A stretch of DNA of 64,000 bases from a virus (taxonomy: Duplodnaviria; Caudoviricetes): the IMG/VR virus record IMGVR_UViG_2740891848_000001, positions 1 through 64,000 of that record; one strand, given 5' to 3'. Below the pieces are notes generated by a model. The model did no database searches. It saw only the letters and a program-made list of their open reading frames with translations, and was not told the DNA's origin. Positions 12,565 to 55,358 of this stretch are shown piece after piece. The stretch's first letter is position 1; the number at the start of each line of letters is the position of its first letter. The position numbers and the translations under genes were made by a program.

Positions 12565-13902
12565 TCACACTACTTTGTCTGTTCGGAACCGCACGAACAC
12601 TGGGTTTCGCAGCGAGCCTTCTGAAGTCTTCTCCATATACTCGCATTCGAGAATCCAACCCATCATCTCCTCGCGCTTCGCCCAGAACTCGTGCCGTTCT
12701 GCGTCCGTATAGCCACCGCCTACGTCGACGCGGAAGGGACTACCGTCTTCGAGCGCGCCCTCGATCGTGAAGCCACCGAGCGCATGCTCATACTTGCCCT
12801 TCTTCTTGCCGTTATACGCCGCGACGATGCGGCCCTCGGCCGTGTCGAGAGGCTTGCCCTTCAGCCAGAACGGTGAGCGGTCCCAGACGTACGGCGCGTT
12901 GAGATCCTTCAACATGAAACCCTCGAAGCCCTGCGCCAGCGCGATGTCGAAGAACGTCTTTGTTTCCTCACGGCTGTTGACGATCTGCTTGTAGCTCGGA
13001 CGAAGGCGCCCTGTCCATTCCAGGCCATCCGGCCCCTCCTCTGCACAGATCTTCTCTAGTGCGATGTCGAGCGCGGAGCTGCGCTCGAACTGCGGCCGCA
13101 GACAAACCTGCTGGTCCCACTCCACCATCGTGAGGAAGTCGTATGCATAGAAGCGAAGTTGCGAGCGATCCGCGCCCTCCTTCTTAGCCTTCATAGTGGC
13201 CGAGAAGGAGGGATGCTTCTTCGTCGGGTCCACAACGTGGATCATCGCTTCGCCGTCGAGGACCATTGCTTGGTTACCTACCAGCGCTTCGCGAAGCGCT
13301 TGCATCTCCGCGTCGAACAGGCCGCCGATCCAGTACGTCTGGTCAAGGCCTTCACGGGAGTATCCGACGACCGGCTGGCCGGGGTGGATGAAGACCGTGA
13401 CGCGCTGGCCGTCCATCTTGAACTCGATTTGCGCCGGGAAGGTCGGAGTGTGATCGCCGATCTTCTCGGCCAACATCACGTCGAACACCGGGATCAGCTT
13501 CGGGAACACCTTGTTGATCTCCGTCGCACCGATGCCGACGCGCAGGTTCTTGCGCAGCACGCAGGCCAGGTTCTCCTGGGTCTCCTGGTCGTACTTCATG
13601 AGCACACTCAAGATTGCGGCCTTCGCGGCGTTTCCCGTCAGATGGCGGGTGGAGAGCGACAGCAGCAATTGAATGAACTCCTCGCCTTGGTCCACGTTGT
13701 AGGCTGAGTAATGATCCGGCATATCGAAATCTTTCACACCATAGGTGACGAACGGCGACAGCGCGGCGACCAGCATCTTCTTCGCAAACTCGTCTTCGTT
13801 AGCGCCCAGCTTGGTGAGAGCTTCGATCTTGTCGTTCTTCTTGGTTGTCGCGCGGCATTCAGCCATGAGGCGATTGAAACGGTACATATTGTCTTGATCC
13901 AT
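12565..13902 (-). CDS. ATP-dependent DNA ligase
   Basis: EFKMDGQR adenylation motif, LDGE, EGFMLK and C-terminal OB fold (GGGYTD, LRNPVF); alternative start at 13887. Confidence 0.93.
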   Translation of the reverse strand: MDQDNMYRFNRLMAECRATTKKNDKIEALTKLGANEDEFAKKMLVAALSPFVTYGVKDFDMPDHYSAYNVDQGEEFIQLLLSLSTRHLTGNAAKAAILSVLMKYDQETQENLACVLRKNLRVGIGATEINKVFPKLIPVFDVMLAEKIGDHTPTFPAQIEFKMDGQRVTVFIHPGQPVVGYSREGLDQTYWIGGLFDAEMQALREALVGNQAMVLDGEAMIHVVDPTKKHPSFSATMKAKKEGADRSQLRFYAYDFLTMVEWDQQVCLRPQFERSSALDIALEKICAEEGPDGLEWTGRLRPSYKQIVNSREETKTFFDIALAQGFEGFMLKDLNAPYVWDRSPFWLKGKPLDTAEGRIVAAYNGKKKGKYEHALGGFTIEGALEDGSPFRVDVGGGYTDAERHEFWAKREEMMGWILECEYMEKTSEGSLRNPVFVRFRTDKVV

Positions 13903-13914
13903 TGTGGTGGTGAT

Positions 13915-14313
13915 TCAGTCCGACGAGACGGACGACGACGAGTCGCTGCTGCTCGAACAGTCGCTACTCGTCGACCAGCTGCTGCCGTTGTCGTACGACG
14001 CGATGTGGTGGCTCGTGTCGTACGATGTGTGGTGCGATGAACTGTGGCTGGGCGCGCACTCGTACGTGCTGCGCGACGGCTCACTCACCGGCTGGTAGAT
14101 CGGGTTCAGTGGGCTGATGGGACTCAGCGGATTGAGCGGGCCGTTCATATCGCTGCTGTCGTCGCGCGTCGTGCTGCTCGACGGGCGCAACGCATTCGAG
14201 CGTGCCAGGCCTCCCGACACCGAGTACGATCGAGCGCATGTTTCGGTGGCCGGCGCAGGCTTAGCGATCGGCTCTGGGACTTCTTTCTTACGTAGCCAGC
14301 CGAATAACCTCAT
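13915..14313 (-). CDS. hypothetical protein with PLNPLSP repeat and Ser/Asp-rich tail
   Basis: 132 aa; ATGA overlap with polymerase stop; low-complexity C-terminus. Confidence 0.6.
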   Translation of the reverse strand: MRLFGWLRKKEVPEPIAKPAPATETCARSYSVSGGLARSNALRPSSSTTRDDSSDMNGPLNPLSPISPLNPIYQPVSEPSRSTYECAPSHSSSHHTSYDTSHHIASYDNGSSWSTSSDCSSSSDSSSSVSSD

Positions 14314-17030
14314 GCTGTTGCCTCCTCTTCTTGCTGTGTTTCGACGGGCACACCGTCGAGGATGTAGTTGAGAATTGCGAAGCGTTCTTCACGCGTGGCA
14401 CGCTTGCCGTAGCGGTCTTCAGAAATGCAAGGCAGACCCTTCTGCATTTCCATCAATTCAACCTGGCCAGCTGGGCACTTCTCCTTGTTCCACGGCTGCA
14501 TGGTTTTGCCGATAGCCAGCGACGAGTCGAGCTTCAGGTTCTTCATCAAGCCAGCGTCTTCGATCATCACTTCGTAGAACATGTCGCAGAAGTCCAGCAC
14601 CTGCGAACGCGGTACGCTGTAGATCAGTTCGTCGTGAATCAGCAGATAGAAGCGCGCGCGGAAGGCTTCGGCTGCAATCCGCTTTTTCATCCGGATCATT
14701 GCCCGCTTCGAGAGAGAGCCACCCATTCCCTGCACCTTCGCGTTGACACACTGGTTGCCGGCGCGGCGGTTGATCTTCTTGATGACCGCGTCACCAAAGG
14801 CTGCGATCGCCGGATCTCCATACGAAGCAAACTTCTGCTTCATGATGTTGATCCACTCGTACGTAGCCTCGAAGCGGTCACGACGGTGGTGATCTGGCAG
14901 CTCGACGTAACCCTTCTCGCGAGCTTCCTCGATCGTGCTGACGCGCCACTCTTCCGCCACGGGGAACGTCGCGCGGTACTTGTCGACCATCTCCCACATG
15001 AAGTCACTGGTCCAGCCTAGCGCCTCGCCGGTCGTGCCCAGCGCACCGGAATACCAGTAGCCGAAGTTCGCCGGCTTACCGATGTCTGTACGAAGTTGTT
15101 TCTTGTCCGGACGGCTCTCGTACTCTTCGTCGCTCAGGCCCATCAGACCAGTCACGGCGGCTTTGTGGAGATCGTCGTGCGGCCGCTGGCCATACGCCTT
15201 GCGGAAGGCTGGGTCATTCGAGTAGTCCCCGATAATCACCAGCTCGACCGCCGACCAGTCGGCCGACACGAGGACATGCTCTTCGCCCTCGGCGTCGTCG
15301 TCGTCGGCCTCGAAGAAGCCGCGGACATACACCGCCTCGCCGAACTTGCTGAGCTGCTGGCCGTTCGGGTTCTGGCACGAGCTTCGGCGCGTGGCGAGCA
15401 TGGAACTGAGCTGCGGATACACGCGGCCAGTGTCCGGATCTACCAGGCACAGGTAAGGCGTCAGATAGAGCTTTACGCGTTGGGAGATAGATGCCATCTC
15501 CTTGTAGCAGCGGAACATGGTCATGCCCGCTTCGTACTGCGTGATCAGCTCCTGCAACGCCGGCAGCGTCTTCGCGGACAGCTTCAGATCAGCGCTGACC
15601 TCGTCCGTCTTCACGTCGATGCAGCCCTTCAGGATCTCGTCGTTGTAGCGCTTGATCCAGCGGCGCTCCAGCTCGTCGCGGCAGTCGCCGTCGCTTTGCG
15701 TCTTGCCATCGGCCTGCATGTACGAGCCGCGCAGCAAGTCATAGATGACCGTCCGCATCGGCATGTAGTGGACCAGGTTCACGCCGCTCGACTCTTTCAC
15801 GCCTCGCTCGATGGCCCACGCGTTCGACACCGGGCCGCGCGTCTGCATGCACTGCTCGAAGTCGTCGTCGCTATCCGGCTGGTTGGCCCACTTCGCAATT
15901 TGCGTGCGGTACTTCTTCCAGCCTTCAGATCCCTTGACCGGGTCGAAGTACCATTTGTCGTACTTGACCAGCTTCTCGTGTGGCTCGTCGGGGAACGGCA
16001 GAAGATCACGGATCGCAGCCTTCAGCGTGCGCAGGCAGCGCGCTTCGTTCGAGCGCTCCTGGTCACGTCGATCAAGAACCGCTTTACCGTTCAGCTTGAT
16101 GCCGTGTTGCCACGCCTGCGATGCCTCATAGACGAAAGGCATCTCCTGTTCCATGTACGTGTTGAAGACCGGAGGGTTCGTGGCCATGATGAAGGCCATC
16201 ACGCGGTGGAACAGCTGGACGCACCAGTACGCATCATCAACGCCGTACTCGAAGGTCTCTTCGCCCGTGAGCTGGCCCATATGCGCCCTGCCCCGCAGCG
16301 TCTCGTCGAACGTCGCCATCTTGTAGCCGAACCAGCTGTGGACGGCGCGCTTCAGGTCGTAGCCGATCTTGATCGAAGCGACGTAGCCGTTGTAACTGTG
16401 CGCCGCATCCGACTCCTTCGCGATGACCTTGTAGAGCAGATCCTCCTGGTCCGCATTCATGGTCTGGCCAGGCTCATACCCTGCGAACGCGCGCGACACA
16501 GCCGGCAGCAGGCGCTCGATGCCCCCGACGCCAGGCTCGCGGAATTTGTCGATGAAGTACGTGTCGGGCGAGTACGCCGTGACGCACAGCTGCAACGTGC
16601 AGATGACGCGCGTACCGAGATCGAAGCCCAGCGACTTGGCCATCATTGCCCACTCGAAGCTTGCGTTGTGAATCAGCCAGTACGCGTCAGGCTTTTTCGC
16701 TTCGAGCAGCTTCATCGCTTCTTCCCAAGGCACGCGGTTCTCGATGTCGGCGTGCGCGAGGTTGATGTAGTACCCGTGGTGGTTTTCATCCGGGTAGATG
16801 GAGAATCCTGTTACGGTCGTGCGGTTCAAGTCGAAGACAAGTTTGGTGTTGCCACCCTTCTTGCCTTCGTCGTTGATCTTCATGAGACGGTTCAGACCTT
16901 CGTGCCTTTCAGAGTCTTCCGTCTCGATGTCGAACCCGATGAACCCCTTGGCCGCAACTTCCCCCGAGATGCGCGGAGCCAGCTCGGCCCAGTTGCGCGC
17001 ATCAACGAGAACTTTGCGATCGGATTCCAT
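14310..17030 (-). CDS. family A DNA polymerase with 3'-5' exonuclease domain
   Basis: Exo motifs FDIETE, HNASFE, YGVDDA; polymerase motifs ADWSAVEL (A), GKPANFGYWY (B), IHDEL (C). Confidence 0.95.
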   Translation of the reverse strand: MESDRKVLVDARNWAELAPRISGEVAAKGFIGFDIETEDSERHEGLNRLMKINDEGKKGGNTKLVFDLNRTTVTGFSIYPDENHHGYYINLAHADIENRVPWEEAMKLLEAKKPDAYWLIHNASFEWAMMAKSLGFDLGTRVICTLQLCVTAYSPDTYFIDKFREPGVGGIERLLPAVSRAFAGYEPGQTMNADQEDLLYKVIAKESDAAHSYNGYVASIKIGYDLKRAVHSWFGYKMATFDETLRGRAHMGQLTGEETFEYGVDDAYWCVQLFHRVMAFIMATNPPVFNTYMEQEMPFVYEASQAWQHGIKLNGKAVLDRRDQERSNEARCLRTLKAAIRDLLPFPDEPHEKLVKYDKWYFDPVKGSEGWKKYRTQIAKWANQPDSDDDFEQCMQTRGPVSNAWAIERGVKESSGVNLVHYMPMRTVIYDLLRGSYMQADGKTQSDGDCRDELERRWIKRYNDEILKGCIDVKTDEVSADLKLSAKTLPALQELITQYEAGMTMFRCYKEMASISQRVKLYLTPYLCLVDPDTGRVYPQLSSMLATRRSSCQNPNGQQLSKFGEAVYVRGFFEADDDDAEGEEHVLVSADWSAVELVIIGDYSNDPAFRKAYGQRPHDDLHKAAVTGLMGLSDEEYESRPDKKQLRTDIGKPANFGYWYSGALGTTGEALGWTSDFMWEMVDKYRATFPVAEEWRVSTIEEAREKGYVELPDHHRRDRFEATYEWINIMKQKFASYGDPAIAAFGDAVIKKINRRAGNQCVNAKVQGMGGSLSKRAMIRMKKRIAAEAFRARFYLLIHDELIYSVPRSQVLDFCDMFYEVMIEDAGLMKNLKLDSSLAIGKTMQPWNKEKCPAGQVELMEMQKGLPCISEDRYGKRATREERFAILNYILDGVPVETQQEEEATA

Positions 17031-17032
17031 TG

Positions 17033-17212
17033 TTACTCCGTCGCAGCCAGTTCCGCACCGACGAGAGCCACAGCCATCATGCCGTGGCCACCGTAGCGGG
17101 ACATCGTGGCCTTGATGTCATTAGCAGCTGCGAGGATCTGGTCGCGGTCTTGCTGCGGCATCTTCTCGATCTCGTCCTTGACGGCGAGGTACGTCAAACG
17201 TTCTGGTGTCAT
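17033..17212 (-). CDS. small hypothetical protein (59 aa, not in ORF track)
   Basis: MTPERLTYLAVKDEIEK...AATE; fills the gap between exonuclease and polymerase; preceded by CACCACCAC and GGATCAA motifs. Confidence 0.65.
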   Translation of the reverse strand: MTPERLTYLAVKDEIEKMPQQDRDQILAAANDIKATMSRYGGHGMMAVALVGAELAATE

Positions 17213-17236
17213 AGTCTTGATCCGTGGTGGTGGTGT

Positions 17237-18013
17237 TCACAGCAGGAAGTCTTTGAGGACTTCGTTCAGCACGCGGTCGTCGCGTTGGCCGACGACCAGG
17301 TTCTTCAGGAGATCTTCGTGGGGCATCTCGTAGAAGCCAGTGATCTCCCACATGGCCTTGAGAACCGCCTCGTTCTCCTTGACCCAAGCGCCCGTCTTCT
17401 TGCCGAGATTGAAGGAGCCAGCTTCGCTATCCCAGCAGGGCTTGTAGCCCTCGGCGAAGTACGCGAGCCAGCGCTCGCGGTCACAGTGTTCCCAGGCTGC
17501 GGGGCCGAAGCCTGGGATGCCGGTGATCTTGTCCGACTTATCCCCGACCAGCGTCTTCATGAGGCGCACTTCGGTCCACGCGGTGTTGTCGTAGTGGACG
17601 ATGTCCCGCCCCATGATGTGGGTGTGTACGCCGTCGCAGGACGCGAGAAAGTCGCCGTCAGTGGAGTGGATGTTTATGCGATCAACTAGCGGTCGATAGT
17701 GTTTGGCCAGCTGCGTGATCACGTCATCTGCTTCCCAACCCGCGATCTCCAGCGACATGCAGCGCGTGAAGCGCAACACTTGCTTGAACAAATCCATCGT
17801 TTTGTAGAAGGCGTCCGGTGGCGGCACTCTGCCGACCTTGTAGCCGGGGTAGATCTTGCGACGGCGGTCTTTCGAACCGTGGCCGTCCCATACCCAGATG
17901 ATGGTGTCGAACATGGGAAGCATGTTCATCTCATAGAGAACGTCGCGGATCGTGCCGTTCGTCTCGAATTTGACGCGGAACTGATTGTTCCCGTCGATCA
18001 GGTGAAGTGACAT
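17237..18013 (-). CDS. 5'-3' exonuclease / RNase H-like flap nuclease
   Basis: LIDGNN, WDG...RRKIYPGYK, EADDVI, STDGD and GDKSDKITGIPGFG motifs. Confidence 0.92.
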   Translation of the reverse strand: MSLHLIDGNNQFRVKFETNGTIRDVLYEMNMLPMFDTIIWVWDGHGSKDRRRKIYPGYKVGRVPPPDAFYKTMDLFKQVLRFTRCMSLEIAGWEADDVITQLAKHYRPLVDRINIHSTDGDFLASCDGVHTHIMGRDIVHYDNTAWTEVRLMKTLVGDKSDKITGIPGFGPAAWEHCDRERWLAYFAEGYKPCWDSEAGSFNLGKKTGAWVKENEAVLKAMWEITGFYEMPHEDLLKNLVVGQRDDRVLNEVLKDFLL

Positions 18014-18084
18014 GTGGACCTCGCAGGGACGTAGAAAAAGCCGCGGACTCTCTCGAGTTCGCGGCTTCCGATGACGCTAGGCCG

Positions 18085-18828
18085 CTAAGCCGTCGCGCCT
18101 TCTTCCTGCTCCACTTCGACGTATTCGCCGAGCGACGCCCAACACATCACGCCCCAGGCGTTACCCGCCTTGTTCGTCATGCGCTTCGACGTGACCTTCA
18201 CATGCACTTGCGCGCCGATCAGGCCTTCCTGCATCACCTTCTGGTAGAAGTCCTGCCATTCGCGCCAGTTGGTGGTCGAGGTCGCGTAGCCCACGCGCTG
18301 ACCAGCCTTCGCCAGCACCGTTCCGTCCGGTGCCTTGACATCGTTGATCAGAACCATCGGCACATCGACGGAGCGGTACGGCTTCGCCTTGTTGTCGATG
18401 TTCGCAGCCTTGGTGACTGCTTCGTTCCACGAGATGCCCTTGTCCGACTGCACGCCGTCATACGTCGACCAGTATTGCGCCGGGTTCCCGGCTTTGATCG
18501 ACATCTTCGGCGCGAAACCGATACCTTCGGTCACGTCGATGTAGGCTTCGAATTCCGTGATCAGCTTGTCGCCAGCCGTACCAATCACGAGACCGTATTC
18601 CTTGACCTTCGCCCAGACATCGACGTTCATCGCGCCGGTCATGAGCTGGTCCATCGACAGCTTCTGGCCTGCGCCAGCAACCGGACCTACTGCGGTGGTG
18701 CCGGCTGCTGCCGGGACTACTGCGCCGCCTGCTGCTGCAACGCTCGCGGGGGACGAGGTTGCTGCCGCTGCGATTGCGCCCGCGTTAGCTTGTGCGCGGG
18801 CAATTGCTTCTTGAATCGGATCAGCCAT
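18085..18828 (-). CDS. putative single-stranded DNA-binding protein
   Basis: Position in the replication module, acidic C-terminal tail (EVEQEEGATA), GGAG RBS before ATG 18828. Confidence 0.55.
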   Translation of the reverse strand: MADPIQEAIARAQANAGAIAAAATSSPASVAAAGGAVVPAAAGTTAVGPVAGAGQKLSMDQLMTGAMNVDVWAKVKEYGLVIGTAGDKLITEFEAYIDVTEGIGFAPKMSIKAGNPAQYWSTYDGVQSDKGISWNEAVTKAANIDNKAKPYRSVDVPMVLINDVKAPDGTVLAKAGQRVGYATSTTNWREWQDFYQKVMQEGLIGAQVHVKVTSKRMTNKAGNAWGVMCWASLGEYVEVEQEEGATA

Positions 18829-19045
18829 TGTAAAAGCTCCAGTTTCATTAGCCAGGTTTCTGTTTCGTACTGCCCTCGCTGCTAAGGTGGTGGACTCAGC
18901 GGCGAGTTCGAAGATCATACGTTCGACCTTCTAACTATTCAATCGCATCTATATGCTAGTTGCGACTGATAGATCCGCTTATGTGTAGCTACGCACATTC
19001 GTTTGTTGACGCTTCCAGAACAGCACTTGCAAGTAACCGCTATTC

Positions 19046-20488: not shown

Positions 20489-20873
20489 CCTTGGTCTCCA
20501 GCTGGACCGAGGATGCCTCGTGATCGGGCCACTGGCTGTTGATCACCTCCATGTCACCGGTGCCTGCGGTCGACACGTCCGACCACTGCACTTCGATTCG
20601 CATGTCGTGCTCGACTCCGTATTCTGTGCCGTATTCGTAGAAGCACATCCGGCCAGCCATTGCGACGATGAAGAACTCGTCTTCTTCAGTGTCCTTCTCA
20701 GGCCATTTGGCATTGACCAACTCCTTCGCCTCGTCGCACATCTGGCCGAACTTGCCCTCTTCTTCGCTGGCTGGATACTGAAGGGCCGCAGTCTGGCAGT
20801 TGTCCTGCAACAGCTCCCAGTTCTTGCCCCAGCGGTGAAGCACCGCGTGATAGATAAATGCAAGAGTCCTCAT
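20481..20873 (-). CDS. phage hypothetical protein
   Basis: 130-aa acidic ORF with coupled overlaps. Confidence 0.6.
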   Translation of the reverse strand: MRTLAFIYHAVLHRWGKNWELLQDNCQTAALQYPASEEEGKFGQMCDEAKELVNAKWPEKDTEEDEFFIVAMAGRMCFYEYGTEYGVEHDMRIEVQWSDVSTAGTGDMEVINSQWPDHEASSVQLETKDG

Positions 20874-22639: not shown

Positions 22640-22646
22640 GGGAGGC

Positions 22647-22874: not shown

Positions 22875-22950
22875 GTTTCGATCCATTAGATGAAGTGAAG
22901 AACAACATGGCCGGCGGTGGTGGGCGCCGGCCATGCTGCTTGATGCGGTA

Positions 22951-23453: not shown

Positions 23454-23643
23454 TCGCTATTGAATATGCCGACGATGGCTGGATCGTCGGTCCACTGCCC
23501 GAACCAATGGCCAGGGTCCAGGCGGGAATTGATGATGTTCTGCTGTTTACGCCGACCGAAAATTGAGCCATTTGTAGGGGTCGCGCCGACTGAAAACTGA
23601 GCCGGGTAATCAACCTATCCTGCTAGTTTTTCAGGCAGGGTGT

Positions 23644-26276: not shown

Positions 26277-26293
26277 GTCGGATGTGAGGATCT

Positions 26294-26704: not shown

Positions 26705-26753
26705 AGTGGCCTCCGGCAAAAGAGGCCACATCTTACGACATCCTGTTAGCAGC

Positions 26754-27696: not shown

Positions 27697-27768
27697 GATT
27701 GATCCTTTCATCTTGTGGTGGTGGTTGGTACTACGGGTGAAACTGACTTACACAGTGAAGCGTGGGGA

Positions 27769-31206: not shown

Positions 31207-31634
31207 GCTTCCACCTTCGTTGCGATGTAGAACGGCGTTGTCAGATCGTTCGGCGCAACGAAGGCAGTCGGGATCGCACCCGACAGATACAGCTGCCCCT
31301 TCTTCGGGCAACGCATCGGCAGCTCGTCCCATTGCGCTATGCCACCGCCTTCTGCGTGTACAGGCCTCGTGCTGATCGCTGGCCCGTTCTCGGTTTTGCG
31401 CGCGTGGCAGGCGTCAAGCGACTTCTGATACGCGGCCTGATCGAAATACTGCACACCCGTCAAGTGCGCCAGCTGGTGGACGATCATCTGCACCGCGGGA
31501 TCGCAGTTGATCTCGTCGGTCCCCTTGCCTTCATGCCGGCACTGCGCAATTGCGTTAACCAGCGCGGTGGAGATTGCAATCGGGTTGCACGCGCCTTGCT
31601 GAATCGCGGCGGCTTCGCGGAATCGGTTGTACAT
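31197..31634 (-). CDS. phage early hypothetical protein
   Basis: Start at ATG 31634 (MYNRFREA), 2 nt after the upstream stop. Confidence 0.6.
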   Translation of the reverse strand: MYNRFREAAAIQQGACNPIAISTALVNAIAQCRHEGKGTDEINCDPAVQMIVHQLAHLTGVQYFDQAAYQKSLDACHARKTENGPAISTRPVHAEGGGIAQWDELPMRCPKKGQLYLSGAIPTAFVAPNDLTTPFYIATKVEACA

Positions 31635-32434: not shown

Positions 32435-32703
32435 CCGTTGATCCTCAAGTTGTCGCGGGCGAAGTCTTCCGCTTCGCTAACGTCACTGTTCCAGTGGGCG
32501 ATCATGTCGTAGATGCAGACCTTGTAGCCCTTCTTAAGCTCAAGTTCTGCGCAACGGTCGCGCTCACCCTCGGAGCTATAGACGTAGACGCCCTTGCCGC
32601 CGTTGTTAGCGTTCATCCACTCCAAGGCGTAGAACGTGCGTCGCTCGTCGCTCGTGATGTCGATGGTGTTGAGGCGCGGGATGTTTGGGTGGTTAAGGCC
32701 CAT
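32431..32703 (-). CDS. phage early hypothetical protein
   Basis: Start ATG 32703 overlaps the upstream stop (TAATG); GAGGAG RBS. Confidence 0.6.
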   Translation of the reverse strand: MGLNHPNIPRLNTIDITSDERRTFYALEWMNANNGGKGVYVYSSEGERDRCAELELKKGYKVCIYDMIAHWNSDVSEAEDFARDNLRING

Positions 32704-35074: not shown

Positions 35075-35122
35075 GATTTGATCCTCAAAATGTGCAATGT
35101 CTGCACGTTGTGGTGGTGGGTG

Positions 35123-36014: not shown

Positions 36015-36049
36015 GAGTTTTGATCCTTGTAGAACGTGCAGTTCTGCAC

Positions 36050-37461: not shown

Positions 37462-37571
37462 TAGTCTTGATCCAGAGATTGGAGTTGTTCTTGAAGACGC
37501 AGCGGGTCAACCGGCAGTTCTTGCGAACGCAGGTATTCGCTGACCGTCTCGGCCAGAAAGTCAAAGCTCAT
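37461..37571 (-). CDS. small hypothetical protein (36 aa, not in ORF track)
   Basis: MSFDFLAETVSEYLRSQ...; TAATG overlap with next gene; preceded by TCACCACCACA. Confidence 0.45.
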   Translation of the reverse strand: MSFDFLAETVSEYLRSQELPVDPLRLQEQLQSLDQD

Positions 37572-38006: not shown

Positions 38007-38171
38007 AACGTGTTTCCGTGGTGGTGGAAGTTTTGATCCTAGAAGCCTCATGGCGGGCCTCCGGGGACTACAGTGCTACGCTGGTATTGCCCAACCCCCA
38101 CAAGCCTGCGGTGAGGGCTGTCATGCGGTCTGCGGCCAGGTGCAGACCTGCACATTCTGTTGCGTTTGCTG

Positions 38172-40797: not shown

Positions 40798-41361
40798 TTG
40801 GCCAAAGAGAAGTTCACTAGGGAACAGTTCACTGTCGAGCTTGCGAAAGAGTGGTTTTCGTATGATACGAACGCAGGACTTGTTATCCGCATCAAGAATC
40901 CGACGCGTGGGCCTAAGACGGCCGGCACACGCGCTGGAGCGCTCCACAAGCCCAGTGGGATGCGCCAGGTCATCTTCCAAGGCGTGAGCGTCTACGAGCA
41001 GCAGCTGGTCTGGGCGCTAGTCACCGGCGAGTGGCCCGCAGGCAAGCTAAAGTTTAAGGACGGAGATCCGTTAAACACCCGTTTTGACAATCTATGCGCG
41101 GCGGCGAACACCGCGGAGAGTTACGAAGCATTACATTCTGGCACTGAGTTGGGGCAGACACCTCTCTCGGGAGTAGTTCCTACCTCAAGCGGGAAATTTA
41201 AGGCTCAAATTTTTCGCGAGTGGATGATCTATCTAGGAACGTTTGAGACACCGGAGTTAGCTAGTGAAGCATACTTGCGGGCCAAGTCAGTCCTTCACTC
41301 TCCCCTGAACAGGGCCAAGTCGACACACGAACTCTTGGAAGAGCTATCAGAGTCTCCTTAA
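40798..41361 (+). CDS. HNH-AP2 homing-endonuclease-like protein with degenerate HNH active site
   Basis: W.LVTGEWP...DGDPLN.RFDNL HNH-like frame and SGV...GKFKAQI...IYLGTFET.E.A.EAY AP2 domain; AGGAG RBS, TTG start. Confidence 0.75.
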   Translation: MAKEKFTREQFTVELAKEWFSYDTNAGLVIRIKNPTRGPKTAGTRAGALHKPSGMRQVIFQGVSVYEQQLVWALVTGEWPAGKLKFKDGDPLNTRFDNLCAAANTAESYEALHSGTELGQTPLSGVVPTSSGKFKAQIFREWMIYLGTFETPELASEAYLRAKSVLHSPLNRAKSTHELLEELSESP

Positions 41362-41416
41362 GAGTTCCTGATGCACCTTAGTATCATCTTGAATCACAAA
41401 TTTGCAACTTGAAAGC

Positions 41417-41445
41417 TTGCAAAGGACTTTGGAGATGTTTATAGT
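41417..41445 (+). promoter_or_regulatory. sigma70 promoter of the putative sRNA
   Basis: TTGCAA (41417-41422), 17-nt spacer, TATAGT (41440-41445). Confidence 0.75.
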
Positions 41446-41450
41446 TCGGT

Positions 41451-41615
41451 CTCAAGTGCTGCGTGATCTGTGGTGGTGAGCGCAGCAGCTGAGACGCCAG
41501 TCTCAGTCATGACTTAGGGGTGGCCAGCTCCGAAGTCGACCGTCCTAGACGGTAGTTTTGATCCATTGTAGAAGCTCAAAAAGCCCATCCGATTAGCTAT
41601 CGAATGGGCTTTTTC
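41451..41615 (+). ncRNA. putative multi-hairpin phage small RNA complementary to start-associated motifs
   Basis: No ORF; promoter upstream and terminator downstream; hairpins 41457-41487, 41489-41506, 41511-41537, 41539-41553 and a weak one at 41554-41577; loops match repeated mRNA-leader motifs. Confidence 0.7.
41578..41615. terminator. bidirectional intrinsic terminator
   Basis: A6-GCCCAT-C-CGAT/ATCG-A-ATGGGC-T5. Confidence 0.85.
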
Positions 41616-41708
41616 CTTTTCAACCTACGAATTGTCATTCAAGTGTGCGAACTGCTGTGTTTACATACAGTAGTCAGTAGTCGTTCTCTTTGTTGAACAC
41701 TTGAACGT

Positions 41709-44782: not shown

Positions 44783-44956
44783 GATTGATCCATTGAAGAA
44801 GTGCGAGAATATTCGGTTCCGCACATAAGGAAAATGAAAATCAGCGGCACTATCAGATAAAAACGCACAACTATCGTCTGATTGCGAACATACATTTTTT
44901 CTTTGTGTTGTGTCGAAGCCTCACTGAGAATAGCGCCTGATCCAAAGGTCTCCTCA

Positions 44957-48296: not shown

Positions 48297-48378
48297 AGAA
48301 AATCTTTGACTCCTAAATAGCCCGTCGAAATAATACGGGCTACTTTCACCGGGCAGTCATTTACGCACCACACTGGTT

Positions 48379-49509
48379 ATGCCGAAGAGCGTTCCAATCA
48401 CACCGCGGATTCAAAACCTGATCACCCAGAACAACGGTGGTGAGGCAGTCGACTACGGCAACATCGTGGTCTTCGAAGCGTCGGTGCTGAACACTCGCCC
48501 GCTGACGAAACCCGGCTCGATCTTCGATCAAGGCCGAGTCTCGGATGACACGCTCAAGCAGATGGCGACGTACCTGAACAGCGGGGGTTTCGTGCCGCTC
48601 CAGACGTTGCATCCCAATGGCGACGAGCTGCCGCTCGGCCGCTTCTTCTACGGTGAAGTCCTGCCGTCTACGCTCGGCGATGGGTCGAGCGAGCTGGTCT
48701 GCCTCTTCTACCTGCCGCGCACCGACGAGAACGTTCCGAAGCTGGACAACGGGATCATCGACGAGGTCAGCGTCGGCTTCGTCGGCCAACAGCTGCTCTG
48801 CTCGCAGTGCGGCTGGGACTATCGCAGTCCGGACGCGTCGCTGCTCAACTTCTTCGACCGCGTCTGCGCAAACGAGCACACGCTCGGCGACGATGGCACG
48901 TATCTCAAGATCAACGGTCTCGACCGCTGGACGGAAACGTCGCTCGTGTCGAAGGGCGCCGCACACAACGCAAAGATCATGGGCCGCACTAAACAGCGGC
49001 TCGGCCAGGAGCAGTACGAACGCCTGGCAGCTTCGGGTATCGCCCCCGAGCAAATTTTGTTGACCGCCACCACAACCGATACCCGGAGTAAGAAAACGAT
49101 GGACAAGGAAATGATCGAGATGGTCAATCAGCTCGCTGAGCTGAAGGCTGATGCCAAGCATCACACCATCGCACTGACGGCCAAGGACGGCGAGATCGCC
49201 ACCCTCAAGGCTTCGGTCGAAGCAAAGGGCGCTGAAATCGCGAAGCTGAAGGAAGGCACGGAGCTGAAGGAAGCGACGACCAAGCTGACGGCAGCTGAAG
49301 CGCAAGTCACGGAGCTGACGGCTTCGAAAACGACTGTCGAAACCGAGCTGGCTGAAGTCAAGGCAAAGCTCGCAACGGCGGAAACGCAGATCGCTACCCT
49401 GCAAGCGGGCGCCGGTAACGGCGGTCGTTCGCAAGGCGCTGGCGCAGGCAACTCGGCCGGCAATGCTTCGACCGCCGCTTCGGCGTTCAAAGCAGCACCG
49501 CGTCGCTAA
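48379..49509 (+). CDS. prohead protease / scaffold
   Basis: LQTLH, EVSVG and ETSLVSKGA protease-like motifs; C-terminal Ala/Glu/Lys coiled coil. Confidence 0.75.
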   Translation: MPKSVPITPRIQNLITQNNGGEAVDYGNIVVFEASVLNTRPLTKPGSIFDQGRVSDDTLKQMATYLNSGGFVPLQTLHPNGDELPLGRFFYGEVLPSTLGDGSSELVCLFYLPRTDENVPKLDNGIIDEVSVGFVGQQLLCSQCGWDYRSPDASLLNFFDRVCANEHTLGDDGTYLKINGLDRWTETSLVSKGAAHNAKIMGRTKQRLGQEQYERLAASGIAPEQILLTATTTDTRSKKTMDKEMIEMVNQLAELKADAKHHTIALTAKDGEIATLKASVEAKGAEIAKLKEGTELKEATTKLTAAEAQVTELTASKTTVETELAEVKAKLATAETQIATLQAGAGNGGRSQGAGAGNSAGNASTAASAFKAAPRR

Positions 49510-49533
49510 ACACTCGTAACCCGAGAGGAAAAA

Positions 49534-49941
49534 ATGAGCAACGTAATCGGTAATGGCGTATCGCTTCGTGGGATGTACCACGACGACTTCCAATACCCGT
49601 TCCTGCTCGCCGCTGGCATCACCAAGGCCGATGAAGGTAAGGCTGTCACTGTCGATACGAGTGCAGTGAACACGGTGAAGTTGGCAGGCGACGGCGATCG
49701 GATCATTGGGCGTCTGGAAGTGGTTGAAGTCCGCGTCCAGGAGGGCATCAACATCGGCACCGTGTCGATCATGGGCGGTCTGGACTTCCCGGCGAAAGCG
49801 GGCTATGTCCCGGCAGCTGGCGACAACCTGGTTGGCGCAGCAGGCGGATTGGTCAATAAGGCAGGCGCGGGCGTGAGCACCGGCTGGATCTTCTTGGGCG
49901 AACTCAGCCCGACCGGCAACCCAGTCCTGGTCAAGCTGTAA
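49534..49941 (+). CDS. head decoration / cement protein
   Basis: 135-aa Gly/Val-rich protein between scaffold and capsid. Confidence 0.65.
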   Translation: MSNVIGNGVSLRGMYHDDFQYPFLLAAGITKADEGKAVTVDTSAVNTVKLAGDGDRIIGRLEVVEVRVQEGINIGTVSIMGGLDFPAKAGYVPAAGDNLVGAAGGLVNKAGAGVSTGWIFLGELSPTGNPVLVKL

Positions 49942-50059
49942 AGCTGCCGGCCCTGTCCACCACCAGGGCTGTCAGTGACCGAAACGTAAGAAGAAGCTGC
50001 TGGACCCGTCCACCACCGGGGCCAGCAGTGGTTGAACCCAACACCACAATGGATCAAAC

Positions 50060-51247
50060 ATGGCCGATCTGATCGACATCGAACGCCGCTCCCCTGCGGA
50101 AGTATTGGCCGGACTCCGTCCGGACGAAGCCAGCGACCAAGGTCGCTCCATCAACGCTGGCCAGCAGCTCGTGCGCCGCGCCGCAGATGCAGGCTTGAAC
50201 CTGCGTGACTACCTCACGCTGGCGATCGACCCGCGCCGCGCCGACGACGCAGCTCGCTACGAAGGCCTGAATGGCTACGAAGCCGCCCTGTCGTTCCTGA
50301 ACCTGCCGGTTCGCCAAGACCTCGAAAACGGCGTGCTCCTGCAAGCCGCGAGCGAGACGTTCCAGACGTACCCCGGCACTCGCGCGATGTTCCCGGAAGT
50401 CATGGACGATGTGCTGCGCTGGCGCAACCGTCAAGACCAACTGGAATCGGTCGCTCCGATCCTCGCGCAATCGCGCACGATCAGCGGCACCGAGCTGATC
50501 TCGACGTTCGTCGACGACGACAGCGCCGAGCGCGGTACGTACTCGGTCGGTGAATTCGGCCGCGTGCCGGTTCGCACGATCCGAACGTCGCAAAGCACGG
50601 TAGGCATGTTCAAGCACGGCTCCGGTTACCGTACCTCGTACGAGTTCAACCGTCGCGCGTCGCTCGACATCATGACCCCGTTCGCATCGCGCGTCGGTCG
50701 CGAACTGGAAATCTCGAAGGTGCGTGCAGCGACGAGCATCCTGATCAACGGCGACGGCGTGAATGGCGCAGCCCCAGTGGTCAAGGTCAGCGACTTCGGC
50801 GGCGACAAGGCGAAGGAGTTCTCGACCAACTACAAGGCGCTCGCCAAGTGGTTGATGGCTCGCGCCAAGGCTGGTTACCCTATCGACACGATCCTGGGCA
50901 ACTACGACATGTTCGTGGAGCTGCTGTTCATGTTCCAGCCGGTGCTGAACCTCGGCAACGCGACGGACATCGCCGAGCTGGTCAAGGTCGGCACGCCGAA
51001 GATCAACACCAGCCTGCCGATCCTGAACCAATCGGTGAACTTCGCGCTGTCCTCGACGGTTCCGGAAGGCCAACTGATCGGCTTCACGAAGGGCGAAACG
51101 CTGGAAGAGCTGGTCGAAGCAGGTTCGACGATTTCGGAAAACGAGCGCTCGATCATCAACCAGTCGATCACGTACGTCCGTACCGAAAACACCGGCTACA
51201 AGCTGGCGTTCGGCGACACGCGCCAAGTGCTCGACACCGCTAACTAA
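50060..51247 (+). CDS. major capsid protein
   Basis: 395 aa, strong codon bias, position, followed by a strong terminator. Confidence 0.85.
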   Translation: MADLIDIERRSPAEVLAGLRPDEASDQGRSINAGQQLVRRAADAGLNLRDYLTLAIDPRRADDAARYEGLNGYEAALSFLNLPVRQDLENGVLLQAASETFQTYPGTRAMFPEVMDDVLRWRNRQDQLESVAPILAQSRTISGTELISTFVDDDSAERGTYSVGEFGRVPVRTIRTSQSTVGMFKHGSGYRTSYEFNRRASLDIMTPFASRVGRELEISKVRAATSILINGDGVNGAAPVVKVSDFGGDKAKEFSTNYKALAKWLMARAKAGYPIDTILGNYDMFVELLFMFQPVLNLGNATDIAELVKVGTPKINTSLPILNQSVNFALSSTVPEGQLIGFTKGETLEELVEAGSTISENERSIINQSITYVRTENTGYKLAFGDTRQVLDTAN

Positions 51248-51265
51248 AGCGGCTCGGGTTGAAGG

Positions 51266-51297
51266 AAAAGGCCCGCCCTCACGGGCGGGCCTTTTTT
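51266..51297 (+). terminator. intrinsic terminator after capsid gene
   Basis: AAAAGGCCCGCCC-TCAC-GGGCGGGCCTTTTTT. Confidence 0.9.
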
Positions 51298-51320
51298 CAT
51301 TGAACTGACCACCACACATC

Positions 51321-51653
51321 ATGCAAAAAATCATCGCCCACACCACCGGCAAGTTTCAGCTGATCGACCAGCTGAGCGGCGACCTGATCTCCGCGCACCG
51401 CCCCTCCGTGATCTCGAAGACCCCCTTCGTGACTGCACGACTTGGTCTCGACCAAGTCGTGATCGTCGCGGAAGTAAAGCCCGAGGCGACGGATGAAGAG
51501 TTCGCCAAGCACTGGAAGGAGGCCAACGGCGACATGGATCTCGCGGTCGAATCGTTCCTGTCGAAGTTCGGCCTCGACGCAGACGGCGAGCCGGAAACCC
51601 CGCGTACGACCGCGCGCGGCGGCAGGAAGCAAACCTCCGCTGCCACCGAATAA
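51321..51653 (+). CDS. virion morphogenesis hypothetical protein
   Basis: 110 aa after capsid; preceded by ACCACCACA. Confidence 0.65.
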   Translation: MQKIIAHTTGKFQLIDQLSGDLISAHRPSVISKTPFVTARLGLDQVVIVAEVKPEATDEEFAKHWKEANGDMDLAVESFLSKFGLDADGEPETPRTTARGGRKQTSAATE

Positions 51654-51662
51654 GGACGCGCG

Positions 51663-52388
51663 ATGCTGAAATGGTTCCAGGCTGGTGAAGACCTCACCTT
51701 TGACATCGAGCTAATCGTCGGCGGCGTCCCCGCGCAGGCCGACGCCGGCACGACCACGGTCACCGTACGCGACCAGAGCGGGCAAGTTCTCGCCGGCCTG
51801 GACCATAAGCCGATCACCGTGCCGGGGACGACTGCGTCGATCCCCGTGCCGGCCGGCGCCAACCAGATTGCGGCGGGCAGCGATACCGAGACCCGGTACG
51901 TGACCCTGTCGTACATCTCAGGCGGTCAGAGCCGCCAGCAGACCACCGCCTATGGTCTGCACCCTTTCCTCCCCATCGAAGCCTCTGAGGACGCTGTGCG
52001 CAGCCTGCTCGGGGTCGCTTCGGACGAGCTGCCTGACGACGACATCGAGCTGGTCCCCGCTTACTACGACCTGGTAACCGACAACGGTGACGCGTTCAAG
52101 AACGCGTTCACCACCGGCAACCGGCAACGACAGCAGGCGAACCGGGCAGTCGCGCTGCGGGCGGCGCTCGACGCCCTGCCTTCGTTGCAGCTGCGCGTCT
52201 TTCAGGCGCGCACGAGCGAGAACAACTCTTTCGGTCGCTTCCAGACGGTTGACTTCCAGCAGCTACGGGCTGACCTCACGGACCAGCTCGCCGCGGCTTT
52301 GAAAAATTCCGTCCCCGCGACGACTGCGGCTTCAACGCCGACGCTGTTCGTGGTGTCCACGCCAACTGACCCTGTGACGAACACATAA
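51663..52388 (+). CDS. putative head-tail adaptor
   Basis: 241 aa; position in the neck module. Confidence 0.55.
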   Translation: MLKWFQAGEDLTFDIELIVGGVPAQADAGTTTVTVRDQSGQVLAGLDHKPITVPGTTASIPVPAGANQIAAGSDTETRYVTLSYISGGQSRQQTTAYGLHPFLPIEASEDAVRSLLGVASDELPDDDIELVPAYYDLVTDNGDAFKNAFTTGNRQRQQANRAVALRAALDALPSLQLRVFQARTSENNSFGRFQTVDFQQLRADLTDQLAAALKNSVPATTAASTPTLFVVSTPTDPVTNT

Positions 52389-52903
52389 TGTCCACGCTCC
52401 CGTCCCTCACGCGTGTCCTCGTCAACCTGACGCGCGGCAACTCCAAGATCTGGGGCGTAGTGAACCTGCCGAAAGGCAGCGCTACCGGCGCCCTCGACTT
52501 CAGCCCCGTCGCGAAGATGCTGCTGACGCGGCGCGGTTCGGTCGCGCAGCCCGGCGACACGGTCCTCGACCTCGGCGAGCGGTACGTGCTCGGCTACTTC
52601 AGCTCCGGCGTGAACGATAGCCTCTTCCGAATGTTCCGCACGCCATTCACCGGAACCGTCACGCGCATGTTGACCGGAAAAGACCCCGTGACTCAGCTCG
52701 AACGCACCGGTCGGCCGACCTCGGTCGGGCTTTGCTCCTACGACATGCATACGAGCGGAGTCGCCGCCGACTTTGGTGACCACAAGCGGACCCGCTATCG
52801 TCTGATCACCGGCTTCGAGCTGGAGATCAACGACCTCATCGGTCAGCTGAAGGTGACCAACGTGCGTCGCGAGCAAGGAATCACCGTCGCTGAGGCCGAG
52901 TAA
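52388..52903 (+). CDS. putative head closure / neck protein
   Basis: 171 aa, TAATG coupling. Confidence 0.5.
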   Translation: MSTLPSLTRVLVNLTRGNSKIWGVVNLPKGSATGALDFSPVAKMLLTRRGSVAQPGDTVLDLGERYVLGYFSSGVNDSLFRMFRTPFTGTVTRMLTGKDPVTQLERTGRPTSVGLCSYDMHTSGVAADFGDHKRTRYRLITGFELEINDLIGQLKVTNVRREQGITVAEAE

Positions 52904-53754
52904 TGCCCGCGCTCGATAAAACTTGGTCCGAGCTGGAAGCCTACGTCGAGAAGGTTTTCTTCTCGCAACTCACTGAGAAGACCGCCGGTTACGCAGACGA
53001 CCTTGCGTTGCAGATCGAGAAAGACATCAACCGCGCGCTCAACACGTTCTTCAAAGACCTGGCCGGGATTATCCAGCCAGGTCTGACTGCGATTCCTGAC
53101 GAACTGTCGACCTATTCAAACATGTCGTGGCCCGAGCTGAGCGAGCGGTACTACTACTGGAAGAACCCCGCGAACAAGGGTCGACTGAACGAGAGTAGCG
53201 ACTTCTTCATGCTGAGTGAGTTGCCGCGCATCAAGCGCAACTCGACGAAGTCAAAGCAGCAATGGCGACAAAAGCGCGTGAGGACCGTAGCTGATCTGCG
53301 CGCGAATCCCAGCCTCAGAATGCGGCTCGCGAAGCTGGCCAACCCTAGCGCCTACTACGGCGCGGTGGTGGTGATGATTGAATCGCACACGAAAATCAAC
53401 CGAGGTGGTCGACGCCAATACAAGGCCGGCACGTTCAGACAAGGCATGAACGTGGGTGGGCAGACGATCAAGAGCGCGAGTGACTACGTGACGATCGCAG
53501 TCAACTGGCTCCCAGCGATCAGCGGACTCGACCCGGATCAGCGCGGTGTCACCGAAAACCCACAACCACGCAACGGCGCGCAGAGTCTCCAGCAGTTACC
53601 CGCTGACGTGAAAGCGAAGCTGTTGAACCACGAACACAACGCGCATGGGACGGCGTATCGTCCGCTGCTCGGCCCCTACATGCTCTGGTATCAGGACAAC
53701 GTGATCCGAAGGATCGTCAAGTCCGCGATAGCACCTTTTGGACCAACAATATGA
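52903..53754 (+). CDS. putative neck / tail completion protein
   Basis: 283 aa, coupled; C-terminal YRPLLGP resembles the HK97 gp10-like RP motif. Confidence 0.5.
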   Translation: MPALDKTWSELEAYVEKVFFSQLTEKTAGYADDLALQIEKDINRALNTFFKDLAGIIQPGLTAIPDELSTYSNMSWPELSERYYYWKNPANKGRLNESSDFFMLSELPRIKRNSTKSKQQWRQKRVRTVADLRANPSLRMRLAKLANPSAYYGAVVVMIESHTKINRGGRRQYKAGTFRQGMNVGGQTIKSASDYVTIAVNWLPAISGLDPDQRGVTENPQPRNGAQSLQQLPADVKAKLLNHEHNAHGTAYRPLLGPYMLWYQDNVIRRIVKSAIAPFGPTI

Positions 53755-54212
53755 TCACGAACAACGCCTATGGCGATCATCTCTCCAGCCTGCTGAAATT
53801 CTGTGGGGACTTTGCGAACGAGATCAACGTTCTGGACGACGACCCGTTTCAGGTCTGCTATTTCGACGCGTACGAGGACTATGAATCTCTACCGAAGGGC
53901 TCATTGATTGGCGTCGCAGGCTACACGATCGGAATCAATGAACATCTCGCACACGTCACCCTCATGATTGGCCTCGCAACCGAGAACGATGCGAATGAGT
54001 TCCGCCTGACTGATGCAATGGGGAAGTTGCTGACGCGCCTGCTTCCGACGAAGCGCATTGACGTGGTCGATTCGATAACGGGTGTGAAGCTGGGTCAGAT
54101 GACAATTGAAGACGGCATTCGAACGATGCCGTCGAGTGGGGCAATGGGACGATCCATGAAGTACATCGCTTTCACGGCGTCTTCCGATGTTACCGTTGAC
54201 CTGAGTTCGTAA
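53751..54212 (+). CDS. putative tail terminator protein
   Basis: 153 aa immediately before the tail tube gene. Confidence 0.5.
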   Translation: MITNNAYGDHLSSLLKFCGDFANEINVLDDDPFQVCYFDAYEDYESLPKGSLIGVAGYTIGINEHLAHVTLMIGLATENDANEFRLTDAMGKLLTRLLPTKRIDVVDSITGVKLGQMTIEDGIRTMPSSGAMGRSMKYIAFTASSDVTVDLSS

Positions 54213-54384
54213 TCGAGCGGATCAACTCCGCGTCTGCTTTAGTGCCCGCATCGAGTCCAGCTTCAATGAGTGTGATCAGCTCCGCGTTCTTGGTGCGACG
54301 ATTGATCTTCGCACGTGCCTTTACCTGTTCATGTATGTCCGGTGGCAATCGCAACGTCGATGGCACCATGTCTTGAACGTCCAT
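54190..54384 (-). CDS. Arc/Mnt-family ribbon-helix-helix regulator
   Basis: TLRLPPDIHEQVKARAKINRRTKNAELITLIE matches the Arc pattern LRLP......A..N.RS.N.E. Confidence 0.8.
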   Translation of the reverse strand: MDVQDMVPSTLRLPPDIHEQVKARAKINRRTKNAELITLIEAGLDAGTKADAELIRSITNSGQR

Positions 54385-54478
54385 TCTGGTTCTCCTTTAA
54401 ACCAATAAAAACCTTTGATTCGTGACGGTAGCACACGTAGCATCCGTGCTACCAGAATTTTCAACCGGAGAACTAACG

Positions 54479-55270
54479 ATGGCTGGTGAAGCAAAGTCTA
54501 ATAAGTTCATGCTTGGCGCGGCCACCGTGATGATCGGTCCGCAGAAAGAGCTGTTCAACCTGAACCCTGAAGAGCACTCGATCGGTCTCGTCAAGAACTT
54601 CTCGATCAGCGGCCAGCCGGCGTACACCGAGCTGACGCAGGGCGTAAAAAACTCCGTCGTGTACTCGGTGATGACCGGCAACCCAGTCACCGCGACGATG
54701 GAAGTCTACGAGCACACGTCGAAGAACCTGGCCTACGGCCTCGGTTTGGACGGGTCGACGATGGACCCGATCGCCACCAAGACGAGCACGAACGCTGACG
54801 TACCGGCAAACGTCGCGGGCACGAAGCTGATTCCGGTGGCCTCGATCACCGATCTCGCAGTGGGCGACTGGTTCCAGGCTGTGGTGCAGGGTTCGAGCGA
54901 CAAGCTGCTCGTCGCGCGGATCAAGGAACTCGATGCGCAGGGCAAGACGATCACGATCGCCGACGAACAGAGCTTCGATTACGCCCTCCCCAATGGCACG
55001 GTGGTGCAGAAGGTGAACGTGGTCGGTATCGGCTCGAAGTCGGATCAGCCGTTCCTGTCGGCGAAGATCGTCGGCAACCTCGCTGACGGCACGCCGGTCG
55101 CGCTGCTCATCCCGAAGATCCGTATCACGGGCGGCTTCACGCTGGCGTTCAAGACGGACTCGTTCGGCAACCTGCCGTATAAGTTCCAGCCGTACGACCT
55201 AGTTAACACCGACCCGTTCTACGACACGTTCCTGCCGTTCGGTCAGGCGATGCTGGCGGCTGCAAACTAA
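54479..55270 (+). CDS. major tail (tube) protein
   Basis: 263 aa, GGAG RBS, strong codon bias, followed by a terminator and chaperone genes. Confidence 0.75.
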   Translation: MAGEAKSNKFMLGAATVMIGPQKELFNLNPEEHSIGLVKNFSISGQPAYTELTQGVKNSVVYSVMTGNPVTATMEVYEHTSKNLAYGLGLDGSTMDPIATKTSTNADVPANVAGTKLIPVASITDLAVGDWFQAVVQGSSDKLLVARIKELDAQGKTITIADEQSFDYALPNGTVVQKVNVVGIGSKSDQPFLSAKIVGNLADGTPVALLIPKIRITGGFTLAFKTDSFGNLPYKFQPYDLVNTDPFYDTFLPFGQAMLAAAN

Positions 55271-55307
55271 AGGTTCTTTTCAGCACTAAAAAGTTCCTTG
55301 CTGCACC

Positions 55308-55340
55308 AAGCCACACGACTGTAAAGTCGTGTGGCTTTTT
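55308..55340 (+). terminator. intrinsic terminator after tail tube gene
   Basis: AAGCCACACGAC-TGTAAA-GTCGTGTGGCTTTTT. Confidence 0.85.
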
Positions 55341-55358
55341 CATTGGATCACCACCACC

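Follow-up and report, generated by a model that had tools for sequence, protein, structure and literature searches.

Here we describe a short motif, GGATCAA (GGAUCAA in the mRNA; henceforth referred to as 'motif B'), that stands in the Shine-Dalgarno (SD) position of dispersed genes of a temperate, JWF-like, Burkholderia-type phage and that is complementary to the 3' stretch of a small RNA (sRNA) gene carried by the same phage. The DNA analysed (henceforth referred to as 'the window') is the first 64 kb of the 81.8-kb IMG/VR provirus IMGVR_UViG_2740891848_000001. We consider it fairly likely that motif B is a weak SD sequence fused to the target of the phage sRNA, and that pairing between the two most likely blocks binding of the 30S ribosomal subunit and lowers translation.

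Results

Motif B occupies the SD position of dispersed phage genes

GGATCAA occurs 18 times in the window, where 7.7 ± 2.8 copies are expected and where a count of 18 was reached in 0 of 100 shuffles. Read in context, the sense-strand sites at starts comprise ten exact copies, one GGATCGA and one GGATCA fused to CACCACCACC, which are listed below together with neighbouring copies of a second leader motif, CACCACCAC (henceforth referred to as 'motif A'), and with the longest contiguous matches to the sRNA (ORF, open reading frame).

13894–13900, − strand: motif B, directly after motif A, before the ATP-dependent DNA ligase gene (ATG 13887; Pfam); 12-nt match ACAATGGATCAA
17217–17223, − strand: motif B, fused to CACCACCACCAC, before a 59-aa ORF (ATG 17212)
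22878–22884, − strand: GGATCGA variant before a 75-aa ORF (ATG 22874); its G would wobble with the sRNA U
27699–27705, − strand: motif B before a 75-aa ORF (ATG 27696); motif A 10 nt upstream
32438–32444, − strand: motif B before a 265-aa ORF (ATG 32434)
35078–35084, − strand: motif B before a 98-aa ORF (ATG 35074); CCACCACC also just past the start codon
36020–36026, − strand: motif B before an 88-aa ORF (GTG 36014); CCACCACCAC just past the start; 11-nt match plus TTCTACAA, with a 1-nt bulge
37467–37473, − strand: motif B before a 122-aa ORF (ATG 37461)
38033–38039, − strand: motif B 26 nt before ATG 38006, with CCACCACCAC in between; 11-nt match plus CTTCTA
44785–44791, − strand: motif B before ATG 44782, the start of the first gene in the leftward block; 11-nt match CAATGGATCAA
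50046–50058, + strand: motif B (GGATCAA at 50051) before the major capsid gene (ATG 50060); 13-nt match ACAATGGATCAAA
55345–55358, + strand: GGATCA fused to CACCACCACC, directly before ATG 55359 and behind a terminator hairpin

The gap between motif B and the start codon is 2–6 nt in ten cases, the exceptions being the sites at 38033 and 55345, and the GGA of the motif falls at −13 to −7 in 10 sites, which agrees with the SD distance of 5–10 nt before the start. Across the whole 81.8-kb genome, 7 of 24 strand-specific GGATCAA copies lie within −20 to −1 of gene starts called without knowledge of the motif, a space that makes up 0.75% of positions (binomial p = 4e-10); the gene calls are crude (based on GC content at third codon positions), which makes counts of leader classes approximate. 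The statement of the earlier note on this DNA that GGAUCAA stands in the SD position is thereby confirmed; the sites that it listed are real, several of them placed 1–5 nt off because flanking bases had been included. Copies of GGATCAA at 2307, 14848, 15652, 43867, 44585, 54219 and 54918 have no plausible start adjoining. An unbiased search for 7-mers enriched upstream of starts returned the same words as the scan for complements of the sRNA described below.

Complementarity to the anti-SD sequence (the CCUCC core of 16S rRNA) is limited to GGA at most motif B sites, with AAGGA or GAGG(A) at a few, and the known 3' end of 16S rRNA offers no anti-SD partner for the UCAA part. Motif A is present in 23 copies in the window and lies at approximately −30 to +15 relative to starts, sometimes directly before or directly after the start codon. 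Motif B is found on at least 11 dispersed start regions and motif A on more. The gene at 50060 resembles those annotated as major head/capsid genes in phages JWF and Seuss. The leader at 22878 has its G in the orthologous leaders of two related genomes (G001 and G003), and a third (G002) carries a similar GATCGAaac leader before a 75-aa ORF. Just upstream of several early-region motif B sites are palindromes of the form GTGCAG-N2/3-CTGCAC (35090–35105, 36030–36045 and other early leaders), which may be operators or RNA hairpins.

The predicted partner of motif B is a conserved, structured sRNA

The locus that carries the complement of motif B is flanked by the primase operon and an HNH endonuclease gene and contains the following elements.

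41417–41445, + strand: predicted sigma-70-type promoter of the sRNA, TTGCAA-17-TATAGT (promoter scan)
41453–41616, + strand: structured sRNA of ~165 nt with 4 or 5 hairpins; intrinsic terminator stem 41583–41609, U tract 41610–41614
41464–41480, + strand: loop 1 (seed A), UGAUCUGUGGUGGUGAG, core GUGGUGGUG; invariant in all homologues, complements the leader motif (CU)CACCACCACAGA
41554–41575, + strand: 3' stretch (seed B), AGUUUUGAUCCAUUGUAGAAGC; unpaired in the consensus structure, complements motif B

The fold of the sRNA has a z-score of −4.5 relative to shuffled sequences. We aligned 12 homologues, representing six sequence variants, from related IMG/VR contigs in which the sRNA likewise lies beside the primase gene. 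RNAalifold predicted 34 pairs, of which 17 are backed by compensatory double changes, and a promoter with 8–9 of 12 consensus matches precedes loop 1 by 16–19 nt in all six variants. Since G-U cells far outnumber A-C cells in the alignment (~61 versus 6), the + strand is favoured as the folded strand, and no ORF of at least 80 aa is present on the + strand at the locus. We therefore rejected the possibility that the GGATCAA copy at 41558 is merely a minus-strand leader: it has no ORF downstream, and both the promoter and the G-U bias point to a + strand RNA. Whereas the stems vary, the fixed elements are single-stranded: loop 1 (GAUCUGUGGUGGUGAG), loop 3 (GUGGCCAGC) and the 3' stretch with its core GUUU[U/C]GAUC. 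No Rfam family reached the gathering threshold anywhere in the window, and none was hit at E ≤ 10 in 41380–41660. Judged by these comparative features, we take the sRNA to be a real, conserved phage RNA unit that has been previously undescribed.

Other invariant parts of the sRNA, namely the heptaloop of hairpin 3 at 41516–41530 (UGGCCAG, with the palindrome UGGCCA) and the terminator loop at 41590–41602 (near UAGCUA), show no excess of complementarity to start regions; protein binding or loop-loop dimerisation is possible for both. The HNH endonuclease gene at 40798–41361 (+ strand) lies directly upstream of the sRNA. In phages JWF and 2-1 the corresponding position downstream of primase is taken by two HNH genes, and the sRNA was not detected there.

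Two seeds of the sRNA are complementary to start regions

We slid a 7-mer window along the sRNA of each of seven genomes and counted its reverse complement in the −30 to +15 region of all called genes of the same genome. Exactly two peaks were obtained, the stronger at loop 1 and the other at the 3' stretch (GUUUUGAUCC), whereas the same-sense control was flat. The 3' stretch gave the second peak in every genome checked and the peak followed each genome's own sequence variant. In the window, the segment 41554–41575 (AGTTTTGATCCATTGTAGAAGC) has contiguous complements at 13894 (12 nt), 44785 (11 nt) and 50046–50058 (13 nt), and one of 11 nt (GGATCAAAACT) plus TTCTA at both 36020 and 38033, so that the match lengths given by the earlier note are all correct. 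The paired region would span roughly −15 to −3, which is the SD position. The further proposal of that note, a second seed covering the ribosome-binding position, is supported by this placement, by the antisense peak, by the unpaired state of the 3' stretch in the consensus structure and by the co-variation of its variable core base with the leaders (see below).

The two seeds overlap in content. The leader of the 59-aa ORF (17210–17235) contains CACCACCACGGAUCA, which is complementary to loop 1 (UGAUCUGUGGUGGUG) over 15 uninterrupted nt, one pair being G-U. UGAUC is present in both seeds, in loop 1 on its 5' side, where it can pair with the GGAUCA of some leaders with motifs A and B, and such leaders could be bound by loop 1 alone. 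Part of the 3' stretch (GUUUUGAUCC, 41556–41565) also resembles the conserved start of bacterial 16S rRNA (27F primer site, AGAGUUUGAUCC), to which the leader motif is consequently complementary as well; this likeness is probably coincidental because that part of the rRNA is base-paired in the mature 30S subunit. We also considered whether the 3' stretch might pair with the 16S 3' end (UGGAUCA), which is not favoured: the conserved core is only GUUU[U/C]GAUC, the CC is missing from one variant (V2), and the change in G003 tracks the leaders and not the invariant rRNA.

Seed and leaders co-vary among related phages

Genomes whose sRNA reads GUUUUGAUC are enriched at their starts in GGATCAA, GATCAAA and TCAAAAC. 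In G003 the sRNA reads GUUUCGAUCC, and the enriched leader words are GATCGAA, ATCGAAA and TCGAAAC. At the orthologues of the capsid gene and of the 59-aa, 98-aa, 27696 and 72008 ORFs, G003 has leaders of the form GGAUCGAAAC, with GGATCGA(AAC), where other genomes have GGATCAA. A rule-based count of leaders gave 6 G and 3 A in G003 versus 7 G and 28 A in the other genomes (Fisher p = 0.012). A second position behaves similarly: the G005 sRNA has GAUCCGU and its genome ACGGATC leaders, and the G000 sRNA has GAUCCAU and its genome ATGGATC leaders. Since the co-varying leader sites are dispersed and have only ~10 nt in common, gene conversion is unlikely and selection by a common reader is the simpler explanation.

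Occurrence in sRNA-bearing phages, sRNA-less phages and the host

The word CCACCAC is in excess at starts in all seven sRNA-bearing genomes, and most of these also show GGATCAA-type words (most weakly G004 and G005). A covariance model of the sRNA (R1) gave no hit in phages JWF, 2-1, Lumi and Seuss, in the related genome G010 or in Burkholderia anthina. In the five sRNA-less phages, motif A is present in only 1–6 copies per genome; the capsid leader has the canonical AAGGAGA in G010 and AGGAACCAAA in JWF. The only addition from scanning IMG/VR with a looser pattern was a truncated, already known copy, and a scan of bacterial genomes with 16-mers returned nearly all chance matches, the exception being a prophage of B. 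paludis.

That prophage, in strain MSh1, is a near-identical member of the same clade, carries sRNA variant V2 and allowed phage and host to be compared. In the 8.6-Mb B. paludis genome GGATCAA-N1-6-ATG occurs in 55 copies, 6 of them in the 80-kb prophage, where the motif is ~13 times as dense as in the host; motif A occurs in 139 copies, 30 of them in the prophage. The count suggested earlier, of motif B at starts in phage versus host, hence shows that GGATCAA is not a common host SD variant, and we rejected a canonical host SD variant as its explanation. On B. paludis contig 1 (230984–231156, − strand) the sRNA model gave another, weak match (22.7 bits), which may merely mirror a target site because its span holds one of the prophage's GGATCAAAACATG sites, at 231052 on the opposite strand.

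Motif A also clusters elsewhere. In chromosome 1 of Burkholderia anthina LMG 22950, ~45 of 145 copies lie in a 140-kb GC-rich region (3.50–3.65 Mb), many of them immediately preceding or following a start codon, frequently with a normal AGGAGA close by. Some of these copies lie in hairpin loops, and a 17-nt complement of sRNA loop 1 is present in one leader (CTCACCACCACAGATCAA, six C, ATG). Since no sRNA copy was found in the region or in the genome, motif A may be read by something else there.

Discussion

A model for motif B and its weighing against alternatives

We propose that about a dozen genes carry GGAUCAA(AAC) as a composite leader element, in which GGA would serve as a weak SD sequence, whereas the UCAAAAC that follows, and in several leaders the ACAAU that precedes, would be fixed as the complement of the sRNA 3' stretch GUUUUGAUCCAUUG. 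The ~165-nt sRNA would be made from its own sigma-70 promoter and loop 1 would expose GUGGUGGUG for pairing with motif A, which lies within or beside many of these start regions. A single sRNA could in this way address dispersed phage genes for replication, early functions, capsid and tail, providing threshold or timing control during lytic growth and, in lysogens, silencing leaky expression and perhaps also that of incoming relatives. Repression of initiation is the likeliest outcome because both the predicted duplex (−15 to −3) and motif A (−30 to +15) lie inside the 30S footprint. Integrase-bearing members of the group and members without a tyrosine integrase hit alike retain the sRNA, which therefore probably has a role beyond lysogeny.

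A number of observations weigh against this model. Phage JWF, without a detectable sRNA, has AAGGATCAA-N2-ATG at its annotated gp075 and gp077 starts, one of which directly follows an upstream TAA stop codon; because of these starts, part of motif B is ancestral or is an SD sequence by itself. Motif B may have grown from an ordinary UAAGGA SD sequence, or JWF may have lost the sRNA where its two HNH genes now sit. Palindromes resembling those near the early-region sites, GGTTCGTAACGAACC, precede both JWF starts (JWF 76935–76960 and 77570–77590). The V2 sRNAs, from Burkholderia prophages, read UUGAUCAAUG and have lost the CC, whereas their leaders keep AAGGAUCAAAAC and fit a seed of another variant type (V5) at least as well as their own sRNA. 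Since the V2 sRNA cannot pair with the GG of motif B and yet the leaders retain it, this GG is probably a residual SD sequence. Co-variation of the flanks is incomplete, G003 having ACGGATCG where its sRNA would require CUGGAUCG, and G004 retains the sRNA with few motif sites. RNAduplex energies discriminate poorly, GC-rich controls reaching similar values through long looped duplexes. Lastly, many targets are essential genes (capsid, ligase, primase) without another SD sequence, which is awkward for pure repression.

This last point fits an sRNA that pairs as proposed and activates or protects its targets, by stabilising the mRNA, opening local structure or loading ribosomes on SD-less leaders, as does the retention of the sRNA in members without a tyrosine integrase hit. 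Activating sRNAs usually pair further upstream, whereas here the paired stretches lie within the 30S footprint and motif A is sometimes flush with the start codon, and we regard activation as unlikely. Descent without any role for the sRNA is a slightly more doubtful proposition: GGAUCAA would be a weak, lineage-specific SD sequence plus spacer (UAAGGAUCAA) and its match to the sRNA incidental. The occurrence of GGATCAA-N2-ATG in the sRNA-less phages JWF and 2-1, with the two JWF copies at annotated early-gene starts, and the GG kept by the V2 leaders speak for such inheritance. It does not account well for several dispersed G003 leaders having switched A to G alongside the change of U to C in the sRNA, for matches of 11–13 nt, which exceed any SD sequence, for the absence of the motif from host usage, or for the 3' stretch being one of only two antisense peaks along the sRNA.

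The remaining explanations invoke proteins. Because the motif contains GATC, and because on double-stranded DNA the copy in the sRNA gene is the same site, motif B could be read as DNA (bound by a phage protein, part of a promoter or a methylation-sensitive GATC), its copies co-varying through their shared reader; that several early copies follow the GTGCAG-type palindromes, with the JWF analogue, would suit this. We consider such a site improbable, given that the motif always lies on the sense strand and 2–6 nt from the start, even at short operon junctions (13894 and 17217), and that the sRNA locus has its own predicted promoter, a terminator and strand-specific structure. A promoter for a phage RNA polymerase was rejected, as no such enzyme is among the large proteins scanned. 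Very improbable, in our judgement, is that the GGA belongs to a repressor site of the CsrA/RsmA type to which the sRNA is unrelated. CsrA sites contain A(N)GGA, usually presented in a hairpin loop, typically overlap the SD sequence and have the consensus RUACARGGAUGU, derived by systematic evolution of ligands by exponential enrichment (SELEX); the GGA is at the right place and ACAAGGAUCA at 36020 resembles this consensus. The co-varying positions nevertheless fall outside GGA, the sRNA bears the complement of the motif rather than GGA decoys, and the motif is rare at host starts.

Returning to repression by the sRNA, if the pairing works as we read it, the virus would place its replication, capsid and tail genes under the central control of one RNA, and the leaders would be a natural case of ribosome-binding sites reshaped to be addressable by an sRNA. 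We put forward more tentatively, as a possibility that appeals less to us than the basic model, that the system is an RNA-only, genome-wide translation gate, in which about a quarter of the genes would have exchanged SD sequences for sRNA-addressable motifs, and in which the 3' seed and the leaders would co-evolve and so set which relatives a lysogen silences. Were this true, the gate would constitute an RNA-based type of immunity or specificity that acts on many genes at once. With U or C in the RNA and A or G in the leaders, the natural seed variants already supply a compensatory-mutation design, for which B. paludis MSh1 and its resident prophage provide a cultivable test system.

Comparison with known regulators

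By analogy, the working principle of the sRNA resembles that of multi-target GcvB and of two-box c4. The RegA protein of phage T4 binds many phage mRNA start regions, at loosely similar A/U-rich sites, and lowers their translation; the two systems would share the use of one phage factor on many phage start regions and differ in that RegA is a protein and here an RNA would act by Watson-Crick pairing. Of the boxes of c4, one covers a ribosome-binding site, and the RNA contributes to immunity. The c4 RNAs of P1 and P7 and the CI RNA of P4 are, like the proposed sRNA, small phage RNAs that act in trans through two short complementary boxes; c4 differs in having essentially one target operon (icd-ant) and in being processed from a longer transcript, whereas here a dozen or more targets are predicted with motif B alone. 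The Rfam C4 model did not match the sRNA (the window at the gathering threshold; 41380–41660 at E ≤ 10). In P1, c4 is a trans-acting repressor of Ant synthesis (PMC8546580).

GcvB belongs to the multi-target, Hfq-dependent sRNAs of enterobacteria. It is a G/U-rich sRNA that silences translation-enhancing ACA motifs next to SD sequences (PMC3879156). In both cases a single sRNA with a conserved, single-stranded, G/U-rich seed faces, on many mRNAs, C/A-rich elements that lie within the ribosome-binding site or immediately before it (PMC3879156), and each has its own promoter, an intrinsic terminator and a seed adjoining the terminator. Unlike GcvB, the RNA described here is phage-encoded, would target the phage's own genes, has two separate seeds, and faces near-identical dispersed motifs that seemingly replace ordinary SD sequences; the two RNAs have no relation in sequence or in Rfam. 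A 2025 review of phage sRNAs covers VpdS of VP882, PreS and OOP of lambda, sar of P22 and STnc6030 of BTP1, which are cis-antisense to one gene or have mainly host targets (PMC12197685). These too are phage-encoded and base-pairing, and some act on phage mRNAs and superinfection, whereas none uses a repeated leader motif across the start regions of the phage's own genes (PMC12197685). Our literature searches for the motif or for an sRNA of the JWF group returned nothing relevant, and no sRNA that addresses its own genome through repeated leader motifs.

The phage and other features of the window

The capsid and primase genes relate the phage to Achromobacter phage JWF, phage 2-1, Xylophilus phage Lumi and Caulobacter phage Seuss, and since the near-identical prophage sits in B. 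paludis MSh1, its host is most likely Burkholderia or a close relative. Genes run leftward from ~44.8 kb and rightward from 44.9 kb. The large proteins scanned comprise a family A DNA polymerase, a primase, an SMC-like ATPase, a ligase and a helicase. At the start of the window lies the following gene.

692–2020: tyrosine integrase

It is followed, within a lower-GC region (692–5085), by a HEPN (RiboL-PSP) protein, a ParA-like ATPase and a Schlafen/AlbA_2 protein, and the region looks like a prophage-borne defence cassette. In the early region ARAGORN predicted a tRNA-Gly (GCC) at 31259–31352 (− strand), whose length, 94 nt, is unusual.

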